Under the pieces are notes generated by a model, which was given only the letters and a program-made list of their open reading frames with translations, did not search any database and was not told the origin of the DNA. A stretch of 61,293 nt of DNA from Bacilli bacterium. GTDB lineage: Bacteria; Bacillota_I; Bacilli_A; RF39; UBA660. The translations under genes were made by a program, and so were the position numbers. The DNA lies in the NCBI GenBank assembly GCA_045541255.1, contig JAZQIU010000051.1:1-61293 (forward strand), read 5' to 3'. This document shows, piece by piece, positions 763-8,541 of this stretch (positions are counted from its first letter, which is position 1; every line of letters begins with the position of its first letter).

Positions 763-1560
763 CTACCTTTTAAAGGTAGTTTTATTTCTAGATTTAATTA
801 AAATTCTATATTCTTCATCCTCTAATTCAACATTCCTTCTAGCATAAGCATATAATTGATTAGCTTTATTTATCATATTTGTTTTATTTAAAGAAGAATC
901 AGCGATAGCATCTAAATATAAATCAATGAATTCCTGTTCGGGGATATTTTCTTTATAAAATGATTTCCTATAATTTTCATCAGTATAAACTCTAAAAACT
1001 TTAGAAGTTTGTACTTCAGGTAAGCCATTTAATCGATGATAAAATTTACGAATCTTTTCAAGAGTTAAATGATATAAATGAAAAAAGTAAAGACTATCAT
1101 CTTCAAATGCTTTATTTAATTTTTCCATTCTATTATTAAGAATTGATACATATTCTCTAGCATCTTCTTTTTCTAAAGCTGGTAAAGGTTTAGAAAACTT
1201 ATTTAAAGCATATTCTTGTAACTTTTTTAATTCACCATTTTTATCAAATATAATTCTTGAAGTACCTATTATAGATAATAGTGCATTATTTTGATTTAAA
1301 TAATCATTATCTATTGATAAATATAAGTCACTAATAGGCTTTTCAAAATATTCAATACGAATACCATCAATATATTTTGTTCCTCTTATTAAATGGTTTA
1401 AATCTACATCATCAAAAATAACATGTAAATCAATATCAGATTTTTTATTATTATATCCAGTTAAAAAACTACCATAAAAGAAAACTCCTAAAACATGGTT
1501 ATTTTCTAAATATTCCATACTTTTAATAAATTTATCAATAATTAAAGATACTTCAGCCAT
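763..1560 (-). CDS. Nucleotidyltransferase-domain protein (Pol-beta superfamily)
   Basis: GS-x(10)-DID motif (YGSFLTGYNNKKSDIDL) plus helical C-terminal domain. Confidence 0.75.
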   Translation of the reverse strand: MAEVSLIIDKFIKSMEYLENNHVLGVFFYGSFLTGYNNKKSDIDLHVIFDDVDLNHLIRGTKYIDGIRIEYFEKPISDLYLSIDNDYLNQNNALLSIIGTSRIIFDKNGELKKLQEYALNKFSKPLPALEKEDAREYVSILNNRMEKLNKAFEDDSLYFFHLYHLTLEKIRKFYHRLNGLPEVQTSKVFRVYTDENYRKSFYKENIPEQEFIDLYLDAIADSSLNKTNMINKANQLYAYARRNVELEDEEYRILIKSRNKTTFKR

Positions 1561-1588
1561 ATTACTTTCCCCCCTGTTTTATCATAGA

Positions 1589-2056
1589 TTACTTATTATA
1601 TCTTTTATCTCCCCACCAATTAGGAATTAAATCTTTTAATAATACAATCTCTCTTTTATCATAATCAGTCATAATTTCCATATTTCTATTTTCATAATCC
1701 AATTGCATTAAAAATTCTCTACAAGCACCACAAGGCATACCACCATTATTTTTAGGTGCTTCTTTTCTAAAGGCAATCATTCTTTTTATCTTTGTTTCTC
1801 CAGTACTCATATACATATTAAGAGCGGCAACCCTTTCTGCACATAAATTCATTACTCCACTTGCACTTTCAATACAGAAACCTGTAAATATTTGTCCACT
1901 TTCACTTTCTACAGCAGCTACAACATGATGAGCTTGTATAAACGGAGATACTTCCTCAGGATGATACTCTTCCTTTGCTTTTAAATACATTTTTTCCCAT
2001 ATATCCATTATTATCAACTCCTTTAATATTACAAATATTATAGCACATTTTAACAA
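1589..2056 (-). CDS. cdd: Cytidine deaminase, three-Cys type; start probably MDIWEK at 2008
   Basis: CAE and PCGACRE zinc motifs. Confidence 0.8.
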   Translation of the reverse strand: MLKCAIIFVILKELIIMDIWEKMYLKAKEEYHPEEVSPFIQAHHVVAAVESESGQIFTGFCIESASGVMNLCAERVAALNMYMSTGETKIKRMIAFRKEAPKNNGGMPCGACREFLMQLDYENRNMEIMTDYDKREIVLLKDLIPNWWGDKRYNK

Positions 2057-2086
2057 AAACTTTTTAAATAAAAAAGTATTAGAATT

Positions 2087-3205
2087 CTAATACTTTTTAT
2101 TTTTTTTATATGTATTAACAATAAATTTACTTTTATTTAAAATTCTGTCTATAGAAGAAGATATTGTATCTGTTGAAGATACATAAAACTCCCACATTTC
2201 AATATATTTCGTAAAAGCTTTACTAAATTTACGTTCCTTAAAATCTTTTAATTTAAAATCACTTGTTAATTTATCTAATCTGTCATTAGCATCATCTATT
2301 TGATTTTGAGATATTTCTAAATCTTTCATTATCTTTTTAACTTCTTGTATAGGTAAATCTTCTATTTCTAATAAAGAAAGATAACAATTTTCAAGATGAT
2401 TCCAATACTCAGAAATTGATATAGTATGTTCTTCCAATTGTATAGCTAAAGTCTCTATTGGAAAAGCTAATTTTCTAAATATATTTTTTATTAAAGAAGA
2501 ATTATCATTTACGCTTTGTTTTCTAATATCAATAATTTCAAATGTTGATTCTTTTATAAGATTACAAGTTCCATGAATTTCTTCACATATAACCGATATT
2601 TCTTTATTTATATTCCCTAAATATTTTTTTATTTCTATTTCATACTCAGAAAAACTCATTTGTTCTATTTGAGGTATATTAGAATCTAAATTCATAGGAA
2701 TAGTTGTATTTAATTCTACTGATGGTAAATAATCAGAAACTGGATTACCATATTTTATAGAACCATCAATAGCACCATCTAATAATTCTCTTAATTTCTT
2801 CTTTAAAATAGGAATTTTATGAAAAATCATATTATATTCATTAGCTTTATAAGATTTTATATCAAATGGCAATTCAGAAATATTTTGAGTAATAATTATA
2901 ACTTTTTTATTCATTGCATGTGCCAATCCTAACTCATAAAAAACATTTGGATTTAACCCCGTCAAATCAGCAATCACGACATCAGCCATATTTATACCCT
3001 CAACAATGTTTTGTAATATATTTTGTTGGTTTTCTAAATCTCCTGCATTAATAAATTCATACTCTTTTGAAAATTCATATTTTAACTCTTCAAATAAAGA
3101 GAAAAAATCATCTTCAAATGGCATAATAACAAATACTTTAGGTCTTACTTTCATTTCTTTATTCCCCCAGTCTAAAACAAAAGAATTAGTATTTAATTCT
3201 TTCAT
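2087..3205 (-). CDS. Nucleoside 2-deoxyribosyltransferase/TIR-like domain fused to a coiled-coil helical domain
   Basis: KVFVIMPF...VIADLTGLNPNVFYELGLAHA...LPFDI motifs; heptad-rich C-terminal half. Confidence 0.65.
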   Translation of the reverse strand: MKELNTNSFVLDWGNKEMKVRPKVFVIMPFEDDFFSLFEELKYEFSKEYEFINAGDLENQQNILQNIVEGINMADVVIADLTGLNPNVFYELGLAHAMNKKVIIITQNISELPFDIKSYKANEYNMIFHKIPILKKKLRELLDGAIDGSIKYGNPVSDYLPSVELNTTIPMNLDSNIPQIEQMSFSEYEIEIKKYLGNINKEISVICEEIHGTCNLIKESTFEIIDIRKQSVNDNSSLIKNIFRKLAFPIETLAIQLEEHTISISEYWNHLENCYLSLLEIEDLPIQEVKKIMKDLEISQNQIDDANDRLDKLTSDFKLKDFKERKFSKAFTKYIEMWEFYVSSTDTISSSIDRILNKSKFIVNTYKKNKKY

Positions 3206-4556
3206 TAATGTAATTTACTAATTCTTCTATTTTTATAGTTTCTTGAGACATTGTATCTCTATCTCTAATTGTTACAGTATTATTTTCTAATGATTCATCA
3301 TCTATAGTTATTGCAAAAGGTGTACCTATTGCATCACATCTTCTATAACGTTTACCAATACTTCCTGCTTCATCATAAGTAACATTAAATTCACTACATA
3401 ATTTAGCATATACTTCCATAGCTTTATCACTATGCTTTTTCTTTATTAAAGGTAAAATTGTTGCTTTAACAGGAGCTAAATATGGATGTACTTTAAATAC
3501 TTCTCTAACATCTCCTGATGCAATTTCTTCGCGTTTTAATCCGTCACATAATACTGCTAAGAATAATCTATCTAATCCTACACTAGGTTCAATAACATAT
3601 GGTAAATACTTTTCATTTGTTTCAGGATCTAAATATCTTAAATCTTGTTTAGAATGTTCCATATGTACACCTAAATCATAATCAGTTCTATCAGCAATTC
3701 CCCATAATTCACCCCAACCAATAGGATAATTATATTCTATATCAGTTGTTGCTTTTGAATAAAAAGATAACTCTTCTTTTTTATGATCTCTAAATCTTAA
3801 ATTATTAGCATCTATTCCTAAACTTTTTAAGAAATCCATACAATAATTTTTATAATAACCAAACCATTCTAAATCAGTATTTGGTTTACAGAAAAACTCT
3901 AATTCCATTTGTTCAAATTCACGCGTACGGAAAATAAAGTTTCCAGGTGTAATTTCATTTCTAAAACTCTTACCAGTTTGACCAATACCAAAAGGTAATT
4001 TAGTTCTCATACTTCTTTGTACATTTAAGAAATTTGTAAAAATACCTTGAGCTGTTTCTCCTCTTAAATAACAAATACTTTTAGAATCATCTGTAACTCC
4101 AATATGAGTTTCAAATAATAAATTAAATTTTCTTATATCAGTAAATTCCCCGCTACCACATTTAGGACAAGCGATTTCATTATCTTTAATAAAATCTTCT
4201 AATTTTTTATTATCCCATCCATCTCCAGTTTCTTTACCATTTGTAAAATCTTCAATTAATTTATCCGCTCTATATCTAGCTTTACATTTCTTACAATCTA
4301 ATAATGGATCTGCAAATGATGCAACGTGACCTGAAGCTACCCAAACTTGTGGATTCATTAAAATTGCAGCGTCCAACCCATAATTATATGGATTTTCTTG
4401 AATAAATTTTTTCCACCATGCACGTCTAATATTTTCTTTTAATTCTTTACCTATAGGACCGTAATCCCAAGTATTTGATAAACCTCCATATATTTCACTT
4501 CCTTGAAATATAAAACCATATTGTTTTGAATAATTTACTATATCATCCATTTTCAT
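3186..4556 (-). CDS. glyQS: Glycyl-tRNA synthetase, alpha2 (GlyQS) type
   Basis: IYGG, LRGETAQGIF, FRNEITP, EFEQMELEFF, IEPSVG and SIGKRYRR motifs. Confidence 0.97.
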   Translation of the reverse strand: MKMDDIVNYSKQYGFIFQGSEIYGGLSNTWDYGPIGKELKENIRRAWWKKFIQENPYNYGLDAAILMNPQVWVASGHVASFADPLLDCKKCKARYRADKLIEDFTNGKETGDGWDNKKLEDFIKDNEIACPKCGSGEFTDIRKFNLLFETHIGVTDDSKSICYLRGETAQGIFTNFLNVQRSMRTKLPFGIGQTGKSFRNEITPGNFIFRTREFEQMELEFFCKPNTDLEWFGYYKNYCMDFLKSLGIDANNLRFRDHKKEELSFYSKATTDIEYNYPIGWGELWGIADRTDYDLGVHMEHSKQDLRYLDPETNEKYLPYVIEPSVGLDRLFLAVLCDGLKREEIASGDVREVFKVHPYLAPVKATILPLIKKKHSDKAMEVYAKLCSEFNVTYDEAGSIGKRYRRCDAIGTPFAITIDDESLENNTVTIRDRDTMSQETIKIEELVNYINERIKY

Positions 4557-4558
4557 AA

Positions 4559-5104
4559 TTACTTCTCCTTAACCATACTTTCTTCAACTATTTTTTCTAC
4601 ATCACTAACACTATTTGCTATATAGAAACAATCAAATAAAGATTCAGAAATAAATTCTGTTTCTATATTTTTCTTCATCCAATTAATTATGTTATCATAA
4701 AATCCTTCATAATTAACAATGATAATTTTTTTATTACCTAATGAAGCTCTATACTCTTCTATAGCACATGTTAATTCTGCTAATGTTCCTATTCCACCAG
4801 GTAATATTACTATATAGTCACTTCTAAAATACATTTTTTGAAATCTAACTAATGTATCCTTAACTCTATAACATTTTGCCTTAGGAATTTTTTTAAAATC
4901 TCTTTCATATTTAGGAACAGTATAAGCATAAATCTTTCTATTATTTTTAACAAACGCTTTATAACAAGCTCCCATCATAGATTCATTTGCAGCACCAAAT
5001 ACTAAATCAAAATTTCTAGTAGCGAATACATTTGAAACTTCACTAGCCAAATTTAAAAAACTCTCTAAACTAGTACTATATGCACTAGCTATAAATACTT
5101 TCAT
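4559..5104 (-). CDS. LOG-family nucleotide phosphoribohydrolase
   Basis: PGGIGTLAE motif in a Rossmann-like fold. Confidence 0.8.
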   Translation of the reverse strand: MKVFIASAYSTSLESFLNLASEVSNVFATRNFDLVFGAANESMMGACYKAFVKNNRKIYAYTVPKYERDFKKIPKAKCYRVKDTLVRFQKMYFRSDYIVILPGGIGTLAELTCAIEEYRASLGNKKIIIVNYEGFYDNIINWMKKNIETEFISESLFDCFYIANSVSDVEKIVEESMVKEK

Positions 5105-5119
5105 AAATAACCTCCTTTT

Positions 5120-5230
5120 TTTAATAAAAAAAAGACTTAATTATAGGGGCGAAAAAATCGCGGTCCCACCCTACTTTTGTCTCTTGTATCTTCATAGCTC
5201 GGAATTTTCCACATTCGTCATCACTTACAT
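5120..5230 (-). promoter_or_regulatory. Glycine T-box riboswitch with ultrashort Stem I
   Basis: Minus strand AGGGUGGGACCGCG T-box with antiterminator UAGGG/CCCUA and GCGA/UCGC (5144-5173); K-turn Stem I at 5196-5225 with loop GUGGAAA containing Gly codon GGA; upstream of glyQS. Confidence 0.85.
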
Positions 5231-5235
5231 AATAT

Positions 5236-5264
5236 ATTCTATTATATTTTTTTTATTTTGTAAA
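5236..5264 (-). promoter_or_regulatory. SigA promoter for the T-box/LOG/glyQS operon
   Basis: TTTACA-17bp-TAGAAT on the minus strand. Confidence 0.65.
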
Positions 5265-5295: not shown

Positions 5296-5649
5296 ATGAA
5301 ATTAGTTGGTGAATCATATTTAGAAATCAAAAAAAGTAAATTTTATGGTTTACTATATGAAATAAATTCTATAGATGAAGTAAATGAAATATTAGAAAAC
5401 TTAAAAAAAGAACACAAAAAGGCAAGACATTTTCCATATGCTTACAAAATAAATAATACTGCAAAAAAAACTGATGACAAAGAACCTAGTGGTACATGTG
5501 GAACTCCACTATTAAATGTATTAGAAAGAAATAATTTAAATAACCACTTAATAGTAGTTATAAGATATTTTGGAGGAGTTAAATTAGGTGCTGGACCATT
5601 ACTCAGAAGTTATAGCAAATGCGCTAATGAAGTTATAAATTTAAAATAA
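5296..5649 (+). CDS. yigZ: YigZ/IMPACT family protein, N-terminal domain only
   Basis: EIKKSKF, HKKARH, DDKEPSGT and RYFGGVKLG motifs. Confidence 0.85.
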   Translation: MKLVGESYLEIKKSKFYGLLYEINSIDEVNEILENLKKEHKKARHFPYAYKINNTAKKTDDKEPSGTCGTPLLNVLERNNLNNHLIVVIRYFGGVKLGAGPLLRSYSKCANEVINLK

Positions 5650-8007: not shown

Positions 8008-8039
8008 TTACCGACACCCCTTATATAAAGTTGGAATTT

Positions 8040-8506
8040 TTGTATGGTATGTTATAAATTAATTTTACGGCTTTGGTCGAGTTGAATTTCTCTATTTCCT
8101 CTCCGTCGGTTACCCTAAGGCGATTTCTCTTTATAAGGAAATAATTAAAAGTCACCTATTTAATTACTCGATTACCACTTAGTCCGTACTTCAAACCTTA
8201 TAACTTGACACGCTAGAAGTTTTCCTTAACACAACTAACCTATCCTTATTCGCTTTTGCAACTATATTTTCATGAATTAAAATCGTCAATCCCATATAAT
8301 CACTCACGACATGCACTTTTTGTAATACTATTGACGCAATAAAAGGATTTAAATTGTATGCCATTACAATCGTCCTTAAATTTTAAATTATATATCCACC
8401 CTAATTTGGGCAACTAAAGCAAATATACAAAGTGTCATTCGTACAATTGATGGATTTTTAGCCCCACCTTCAAATAGTGTTTATGACTAGCATAATGCAC
8501 CACACG
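8040..8506 (-). ncRNA. ole: OLE (ornate, large, extremophilic) RNA, compact variant
   Basis: ORF-free 0.5 kb, richer in GC than its flanks; OLE-like segments GGUGCAUUAUGCUAGUC, UUGAAGGUGGGGCUAAAAAUCC, GGAAAACUUCUAG and GUACGGACUAAGUGGUAAUC; ends pair (GUGUGGUG/UACCAUAC); directly upstream of oapA. Confidence 0.85.
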
Positions 8507-8512
8507 AATAAA

Positions 8513-8541
8513 ATTATAGCATATTTTAATACTTTTGTCAA
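8513..8541 (-). promoter_or_regulatory. Consensus SigA promoter for ole-oapA
   Basis: TTGACA-17bp-TATAAT with an extended TG. Confidence 0.85.

Follow-up and report, generated by a model that had tools for sequence, protein, structure and literature searches.

A minimal glycine T-box leader with a terminator-like hairpin around its antiterminator in small-genome gut Bacilli

The locus and its leader

The stretch of DNA analysed here (61,293 nucleotides (nt) from contig JAZQIU010000051.1 of a Bacilli bacterium, assembly GCA_045541255.1; hereafter the window) carries on its minus strand a leader RNA which, as judged from its sequence, is a genuine and conserved glycine T-box that has been drastically reduced. 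It occupies a gap of 191 nt between a divergently transcribed UPF0029 gene (5296-5649, plus strand) and a minus-strand operon (763-5104) that includes a gene for glycine--tRNA ligase. An original prediction, made without database searches, had described the element as an ultrashort glycine T-box with an apical specifier and no obvious terminator hairpin, minimised independently of known examples and possibly acting on translation. Its anatomy proves right and its translational inference unsupported; the real oddity is a terminator-like hairpin nested around the antiterminator, together with the loss of parts that were supposed to be indispensable. We lean, at slightly better than even confidence, towards transcription attenuation by this nested terminator, which uncharged tRNA-Gly would keep from forming. 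The parts of the leader and the two first genes of the operon are listed in Table 1.

Table 1. Positions of the promoter, the leader parts and the leading operon genes in the window; paired segments are given 5' strand first.
Feature	Position	Strand	Details
Promoter	5236-5264	minus	-35 TTTACA 5264-5259, 17-nt spacer, -10 TAGAAT 5241-5236; 10/12 consensus matches
Glycine T-box leader	5126-5229	minus	
Ultrashort Stem I	5196-5225	minus	30 nt; sequence, and covariation on 96 sequences
Stem I base helix	5225-5223 with 5198-5196	minus	AGU/GCU, 3 bp
Kink-turn (K-turn)	5222-5218 with 5200-5199	minus	GAUGA..GA: bulge GAU 5222-5220, tandem G.A 5219/5199 and 5218/5200; motif only
Stem I upper stem	5216-5213 with 5205-5202	minus	GAAU/AUUC, 4 bp
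Apical loop	5212-5206	minus	GUGGAAA, 7 nt
Specifier	5208-5210	minus	GGA (Gly) in the apical loop, U5211 before, A5207 after
Linker	5174-5195	minus	No predicted pairing (folds to 0 pairs); purine string AAGAG 5185-5181, AC, AAAAG 5178-5174
T-box antiterminator	5145-5172	minus	RF00230 alignment
Helix A1	5172-5169 with 5148-5145	minus	AGGG/CCCU
T-box bulge	5168-5162	minus	UGGGACC, 7 nt
Helix A2	5161-5158 with 5152-5149	minus	GCGA/UCGC; base pair G5161-C5149, not G.U
Nested terminator-like hairpin	5130-5185	minus	RNAalifold consensus, 14 orthologues
Lower helix	5185-5179 with 5136-5130	minus	AAGAGAC/GUCUUUU; encloses extended A1 and A2
Extended A1 inside nested hairpin	5174-5169 with 5148-5143	minus	
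U8 run	5126-5133	minus	First four U's able to pair into the lower helix, rest directly 3'
Hairpin at the Shine-Dalgarno (SD) sequence	5111-5135	minus	UCU8-AUU-A7GGA 5135-5113, overlaps SD AGGAGG 5116-5111; -4.9 kcal/mol
A7 and SD AGGAGG	5122-5111	minus	Start codon at 5104
LOG / TIGR00730-like Rossmann-fold protein, operon gene 1	4559-5104	minus	181 aa; PF03641 E 7.9e-18
glyQS-type (dimeric) glycine--tRNA ligase	3186-4556	minus	456 aa; NF003211 664 bits, cut-off 312

The first gene of the operon encodes a LOG-like protein, which scores 80.9 bits against TIGR00730 (below the cut-off of 96.35) and whose gene is also the first one in 30 of 96 relatives (defined below). glyQS starts 2 nt past the LOG stop codon, with its own SD sequence inside the LOG gene. 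The predicted match between the GGA specifier and a downstream glyQS thus stands as far as the presence of a glycyl-tRNA synthetase (GlyRS) gene is concerned, whereas its position had to be corrected, glyQS being the second gene. Open reading frames (ORFs) with Nuc_deoxyrib_tr, cytidine-deaminase-like and nucleotidyltransferase domains lie 3' of glyQS, and we cannot explain what might link these nucleotide-processing genes to tRNA-Gly charging. The genome (1.37 Mb in 57 contigs, 25.6% G+C) encodes both tRNA-Gly(UCC) and tRNA-Gly(GCC), each with the discriminator base U73. The Rfam T-box model RF00230 has ten matches in the whole genome, five of them above its cut-off (before hisS, ileS, aspS and two unnamed ORFs), and a sixth, of 86 bits, before pheS. 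Within the window, a gathering-threshold Rfam scan reported an OLE (ornate large extremophilic) RNA and tRNA only. This OLE RNA is full-length (8028-8519, minus strand, 231 bits), in a host whose look-alike leaders come from gut and rumen metagenome-assembled genomes (MAGs).

A short Stem I with a glycine codon in its loop

From the promoter, transcription would start near 5229, that is 62 nt ahead of the UGGGACC bulge, in good agreement with the earlier estimate of a start at about 5230 and a distance of about 60 nt. Each of 14 aligned orthologous leaders, the set that also served for RNAalifold, has a promoter with 10/12 consensus matches and a 17-nt spacer, whose -10 element ends 8-14 nt ahead of Stem I. 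A start far upstream that would give a Stem I of normal length was considered and is excluded, because the promoter is conserved this close to Stem I in 14 of 14 leaders and the divergent gene begins ~70 nt upstream. With its 30 nt beginning only a few nt past the conserved promoter, Stem I has no distal elbow platform of the kind found on long Stem I elements, and instead displays the short form with a specifier in the apical loop that marks class III T-boxes.

The GGA triplet is followed by a purine, as is usual for T-box specifiers, and agrees with the GlyRS encoded downstream. In our own reading, the loop (N-U-GGN-A-N) would resemble an anticodon loop, with U on the 5' side of the triplet and a purine on the 3' side. 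Sequences against which this anatomy could be checked came from three sources. Of the 15 further genomes of the genus, 12 gave a full-length BLAST match to the leader, as did one genome from another genus. A covariance model built from the 14-leader alignment (R1) was run on 151 genomes drawn from the family and matched 148 at E<=0.01, although weak matches may be 3' halves of other T-boxes, as seen in this genome; its 28 best loci from other genera (52-89 bits) all have the same short architecture. Finally, a degenerate pattern of the architecture retrieved at least 119 stretches from species-representative genomes, where we estimate that ~4 would be expected by chance. The records hit by the pattern are nearly all gut or rumen MAGs titled uncultured Bacilli, Tenericutes, Erysipelotrichaceae, 'Mycoplasma sp. 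CAG:776' or 'Firmicutes bacterium CAG:582', which we take to belong to the order RF39. After removal of duplicates and non-matching entries, 117 loci (80 from the pattern scan, 9 from the genus set and 28 derived from the model) yielded the 96 distinct sequences to which we refer as relatives.

The apical codon is always one for glycine in these relatives, GGA in 83 and GGC in 13, though the pattern demanded TGGMA and the 96 sequences are therefore not an independent test of the codon. The 28 model-derived matches from other genera are the fairer sample, and all 28 carry UGGAA or UGGCA in the apical loop. The stem offers a separate line of evidence, as the search pattern set no requirement of complementarity on it. 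On the alignment of the 96 sequences (A4), 85.5% of the Stem I cells pair versus 61.0% in shuffles, and the covariation score is 0.71 (0.24 in shuffles), which none of 500 shuffles attained; slid partners reach 0.15 at most. Two-sided changes occur in six of the eight Stem I pairs counted, including all four pairs of the upper stem and one of the base helix. At least four contiguous pairs form in 78 of 96 sequences, compared to 21.6 expected with permuted partners; the number of distinct stem combinations is 78. Codon conservation and covariation alike thus support the proposed glycine identity of the T-box, its ultrashort Stem I and the apical position of the specifier. That this Stem I was minimised independently is plausible, because a Stem II is lacking here, unlike in the actinobacterial ileS class.

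A related design was encountered in another family of the class, where a leader of 108 nt (L196:1501-1608, minus strand, corresponding to G042:C9:6586-6693) has a short Stem I bearing GCA in its loop (perhaps for Ala), a bulge of the form UGGU and a Stem III hairpin, to which a 3' strand ahead of a U6 run is complementary. This leader suggests that the design also serves other amino acids.

A helix that encloses the antiterminator

The 26 nt that separate Stem I from the initial G of the GGUGG motif are unstructured and hold neither a Stem II with its S-turn and IIA/B pseudoknot nor a Stem III hairpin flanked by RRRxG and AA. Purines are present here though (AAGAG..AAAAG), and a comparison of Stem-III-bearing relatives with the motif given in PMC7583486 suggests that they may represent the RRRxG..AA motif flanking Stem III in the discriminator, joined by 2-3 nt. 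The antiterminator itself consists of helices A1 and A2 around a 7-nt bulge of the type UGGN-ACC. RF00230, by which the prediction was to be checked, does align this antiterminator part (24.4 bits, E 0.0014 in a 401-nt search) and nothing else of the leader, far under its gathering cut-off of 93 bits. The stability of the whole-leader fold is ordinary (z = 0.09), and thermodynamics alone is uninformative here.

We agree with the original prediction that the antiterminator 3' strand has no terminator-type complement further downstream, none having been found in a duplex check. As the 5' strand, too, pairs with the downstream region no better than shuffled sequence does (30% of shuffles being as good), a canonical terminator was rejected. 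Where the prediction fell short was in seeing no obvious terminator hairpin at all, for it overlooked a conserved helix that is formed by the linker and the segment just ahead of the U-run, surrounds the antiterminator and leads straight into U8. RNAalifold on the 14 orthologues yields both Stem I helices, A1, A2 and, in addition, this lower helix. The minimum free energy (MFE) of the nested hairpin in this species is -15.4 kcal/mol, versus -8.6 kcal/mol for the antiterminator alone.

The same wiring prevails among the relatives. When the 95 of them with sufficient sequence were folded by MFE from Stem I to the longest U-run, 89 were nested, meaning that the last 10 nt before the U-run pair with the segment 5' of the T-box, and two (L080 and L123) were canonical, these nucleotides pairing with the 3' half of the antiterminator; the other four stayed unclassed owing to ties between two U-runs and, by eye, look nested as well. 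The 89 nested leaders have a median U-run of 6 and a median hairpin energy of -21.7 kcal/mol. Across 60 distinct linker classes, duplexes of cognate strands have a median of -12.3 kcal/mol, compared to -6.2 kcal/mol for non-cognate ones, and for 32 of these classes the share of foreign 3' strands that pair as well as the cognate one stays under 5%. The two strands covary as blocks. Conserved as it is around the antiterminator and with a U-run at its end, the helix looks like an intrinsic terminator, if an unusually wired one.

The other T-boxes of this genome end, by eye, in ordinary terminators, which argues that the organism uses attenuation. Several leaders shed light on how the parts can be combined. 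In the hisS T-box (L002:1501-1682, minus strand, corresponding to G000:C57:36215-36396; 106.8 bits, long Stem I), a helix ACACUUG/CAAGUGU encloses the antiterminator before a U6 run, as seen by eye, so that nested wiring is not tied to a short Stem I. Conversely, the two canonical relatives (L080:395-539 and L123:395-526, both plus strand), which are GC-richer, join a short glycine Stem I (GGC) and a Stem III to a classical terminator on the antiterminator 3' strand, and short Stem I and nested terminator are therefore separable; one of these records is titled Clostridiales, the other Gammaproteobacteria, the latter probably mislabelled. Besides, a T-box of 64.9 bits in the present genome (L007, corresponding to G000:C48:24321-24495, minus strand) has a strand ahead of its U-run that, by eye, pairs with the 5' half of the antiterminator, on the bulge side, and would be a third kind of wiring within one genome. 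The tyrS leader (L008:1501-1618, minus strand, corresponding to G000:C27:9965-10082; RF00230 46 bits; TIGR00234), likewise judged by eye, seems to have a short Stem I with UAC followed by G at its apex, a Stem-II-like hairpin, a helix enclosing the antiterminator and U7 at its end.

How the nested helix relates to Stem III is best seen where both exist. In most relatives, the segment 5' of the T-box forms a Stem III hairpin, and in 55 of 57 cases this hairpin shares 3 nt or more with the terminator 5' strand. We aligned 68 of the 74 sequences with a long linker, omitting L080, L123, L111, L134, L142 and L149 as divergent; five rows of this alignment are truncated at their 3' ends. For Stem III, 97.9% of cells are paired and the covariation is 0.264 versus 0.156 in shuffles. 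For the nested helix taken together with A1 and A2, 88.3% of cells are paired, 13 pairs show two-sided changes and the covariation is 0.267 versus 0.144, slid controls giving at most 0.114. In both cases, 0 of 500 shuffles scored as high. Mutually exclusive structures that both covary, followed by a U-run, are at the sequence level the signature of a transcriptional switch, and the terminator of these relatives is predicted to compete with Stem III, leaving A1 and A2 intact. One could alternatively regard the enclosing helix as a stand-in for Stem III in the tRNA-bound state, with the U-run kept for its pairing and regulation exerted through RNA stability, processing or Rho. The lower helix indeed stacks below A1, where a scaffold could aid a discriminator devoid of Stem III, and part of the U-run pairs with AAGAG. 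We nonetheless find this reading very improbable, because the same 3' strand pairs with Stem III nucleotides in the Stem-III-bearing relatives, which makes coexistence impossible, and because the U-run of this leader and of several relatives exceeds, by eye, the complementary stretch of A and G.

Stem III is ubiquitous in all known T-boxes, according to PMC9177973, and Stem III, along with the purines that flank it, has been described as necessary for binding the tRNA 3' end, with the G.U wobble at the base of A2 acting as the main steric sensor of the aminoacyl group (PMC7583486). The hairpin is missing from this genus and from a few other lineages (27 sequences, alignment A3), in which the terminator 5' strand is the purine string itself; inspection of this group by eye gave no conserved cryptic Stem III or alternative antiterminator hairpin. 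Taken together, the helices of Stem I, A1 and A2 are paired in 98% of the cells of A3 (100% for A1 and A2), with compensatory changes (GC/UA and GC/AU in A1 and A2). As these helices still pair and are compensated in this way, the tRNA-binding parts appear to be under selection. At the 3' strand of the lower helix, MAFFT had left A3 out of register, so those pairs went uncounted and the duplex permutation test was used instead.

With Stem III, the wobble has disappeared. The base pair of A2 is GC in 22, AU in five and GU in none of the 27 Stem-III-less sequences, compared to G.U in 60 of the 68 Stem-III-bearing ones, and a separate parse by linker length gave G.U in 0 of 18 short-linker versus 62 of 74 long-linker sequences, counts that are not phylogenetically independent. 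This joint loss could be taken for the mark of a half-decayed T-box, which still folds or binds tRNA-Gly without discriminating its charge and now either attenuates at a fixed, leaky level or senses the total amount of tRNA-Gly. Further signs of decay may be seen in the bulge, whose ACC is changed to ACA in most relatives of the same genus, and in a genome of that genus (G013; L025, G013:C3:51043-54084) that has kept the promoter and the LOG-like gene with ~35 nt between them and has lost the T-box there altogether. In the present species, a weak lower helix is accompanied by a UGGG bulge, which faces U73 of both tRNA-Gly and would thereby form a G.U wobble; the fourth bulge base is A in 93 and G in three of the 96 relatives. 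On the other hand, specifier, UGGN bulge, A1 and A2 are conserved with compensatory changes in 27 sequences that span several lineages, the purine string persists, and a plain attenuator has no need of a glycine codon in its loop, for which reasons we consider decay a doubtful explanation.

Control at the level of translation was the mechanism that the original prediction considered possible, in view of a hairpin of a CU-run and an A-run abutting the SD. Such a hairpin exists (CU8/A7GG, -4.9 kcal/mol) and competes with the lower helix for positions 5130-5135, but it is not conserved: it forms part of the MFE structure of the read-through leader in only three of 14 orthologues (this species, G010 and G009). 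This species and its two closest relatives have the longest U-run (U8) as well as the A-run hairpin at the SD. One can envisage that GUCUUUUUUUU pairs either upstream with AAGAGAC, leaving the SD free, or downstream with A7GGA, masking it, and that tRNA would stabilise A1 with the contiguous lower helix and so expose the SD. The two states are near isoenergetic (-15.4 versus -8.6 plus -4.9 kcal/mol), and the mean unpaired probability of the SD in the read-through leader is 0.41. The SD is also the best partner of the antiterminator 3' strand (GCCCCU with AGG(A)GGU, -7.2 kcal/mol, equalled by 2.8% of shuffles), which would allow a further masking duplex in this species, and an ultrashort Stem I has so far been tied to translational T-boxes (PMC7583486). 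Not much weight can be given to the complementarity, however, since C-rich A1 and CU-rich strands pair with any SD. In the other 11 orthologues the SD lies further off and has no common partner, and across all 14 no single SD partner is conserved; the spacing between U-run and SD varies, by eye, from ~6 to 24 nt. Moreover, nearly all relatives have retained a U-run immediately 3' of the helix, and an SD switch needs none. (The distance from U-run to start codon, 10-177 nt with a median of 31 in 78 sequences, relies on rough guesses of the start and was not used as evidence.) Translational or mixed control, the chief rival reading for this species, thus seems unlikely even here, and as a conserved mechanism it finds no support in view of the variable SD surroundings and the constant nested helix.

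A proposed switch and its place among known T-boxes

Conserved anatomy, covariation of every helix and a U-run adjacent to the last of them are common to these leaders; from these we infer binding of tRNA, termination and the way in which the one could prevent the other. In the attenuation reading, the leader would be reduced to two contacts with tRNA, namely the apical U-GGA-A loop on a K-turn hairpin and the UGGN bulge for the tRNA 3' end. The terminator would be a longer hairpin built around an intact antiterminator, its lower helix joining the segment just 5' of the T-box to the one that precedes the U-run. In Stem-III-bearing relatives, Stem III with the tRNA-bound discriminator would constitute the ON state and the nested terminator the OFF state. 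In this genus, where the purine string AAGAG-AC serves as the terminator 5' strand, an uncharged tRNA-Gly held at both of its ends would keep that strand from zipping up with GUCUUUU. This might happen because the purines dock on the duplex of tRNA and bulge, as they do in known discriminators, or through geometric strain, if the span from anticodon to acceptor end could no longer be reached once the short linker has joined a rigid helix below A1; the latter idea is a rough geometric argument. With the lower helix blocked, RNA polymerase would read through into the LOG-glyQS operon.

Several observations weigh against this account. The lower helix of this leader is the weakest of the set (duplex -5.2 kcal/mol), its whole hairpin falls short of the median of the nested relatives by the energies given above (-15.4 versus -21.7 kcal/mol), a simple consensus terminator scan reported 0 terminators at the leader, and in the MFE structure of the full read-through leader the lower helix gives way to the SD hairpin. 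Three features to which the literature gives a central role in charge sensing are absent or altered, namely Stem III as a hairpin, the G.U wobble with which A2 begins, and any Stem II or elbow contact that would reinforce the GGA/UCC duplex. By stabilising A1, which is continuous with the lower helix, tRNA could even favour the nested hairpin rather than hinder it. A search of sequencing runs for this locus listed five contig-only carriers, with shares of 0.22-0.42, and no RNA run among them. Finally, the sequences compared are related by descent, so that the shuffle statistics overstate their independence.

Going one step further, the leader may represent a new and fifth kind of T-box architecture, made of nothing but an anticodon-loop-like hairpin and an NCCA-binding bulge, with a terminator wrapped round the antiterminator whose zip-up is blocked by tRNA. 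We put this forward tentatively and would not yet call it probable. Its interest lies in two rules of the T-box literature that a large group of gut Bacilli with small genomes appears to break: a long Stem I equipped with an elbow platform is required of transcriptional T-boxes, and a Stem II of those whose Stem I is short (PMC10482949 for the latter). To this the same bacteria add a terminator that leaves the helices of the antiterminator intact. If the switch works as proposed, it would be the smallest natural RNA to read tRNA identity and, perhaps, charging during transcription, and would couple tRNA binding to termination by a different logic. This should be useful for understanding riboswitch evolution in reduced genomes as well as for the design of compact tRNA sensors. 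The T-box regulons of these gut lineages may also be under-annotated, because the Rfam model behind the transcriptional set of TBDB scores this leader far below its cut-off. According to its bioRxiv version, TBDB drew on RF00230 together with a model of actinobacterial ileS T-boxes, and one would expect neither to detect the leader. In the literature searched, we found no description of a short-Stem-I T-box that lacks Stem II and has a terminator, nor of a terminator enclosing an antiterminator, the supplements of Sherwood et al. 2015 and Vitreschak et al. 2008, which might list such cases, being outside that search; a search combining RF39, T-box and riboswitch returned nothing.

Among known systems, intrinsic (Rho-independent) terminators share with this leader a hairpin followed immediately by a U-run and an A-rich 5' side. 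The stem described here differs from theirs in being GC-poor and long-range, spanning an insert of 40 to 55 nt that is itself a tRNA-binding hairpin with a 7-nt bulge; a standard scan misses it.

T-boxes have been sorted into four classes, of which class II is glycine-specific, with a long Stem I and no Stem II, and class III, whose short Stem I carries the specifier at its apex, cannot do without Stem II (PMC10482949). With the class II T-boxes of glyQS and glyS in Bacilli and Clostridia (Bacillus subtilis, G. kaustophilus, O. iheyensis; PMC10482949), the leader shares a glycine specifier followed by a purine, the lack of Stem II, a K-turn at the base of Stem I, a UGGN-ACC bulge with A1 and A2, the control of GlyRS and a final hairpin with a U-run; the glyS T-box of C. 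tetani (PMC11404447) is a class II example with a GGA specifier. Class II members possess a Stem III, a G.U at the base of A2 and a terminator that takes the antiterminator 3' strand, whereas the present leader has a 30-nt Stem I with the specifier at its apex, neither Stem III nor wobble, and a terminator-like helix that, instead of using that 3' strand, pairs with the linker and encloses the antiterminator. The actinobacterial ileS T-boxes of class III (Nocardia farcinica, Mycobacterium; Sherwood et al. 2015, via PMC7583486 and PMC10482949) resemble it in their short or ultrashort Stem I, the missing elbow platform and the apical specifier. They are specific for Ile, act on translation through an SD sequestrator, require Stem II (PMC10482949) and keep Stem III, while the leader described here is specific for Gly, dispenses with Stem II and its pseudoknot, has no conserved SD sequestrator and is followed by a U-run.

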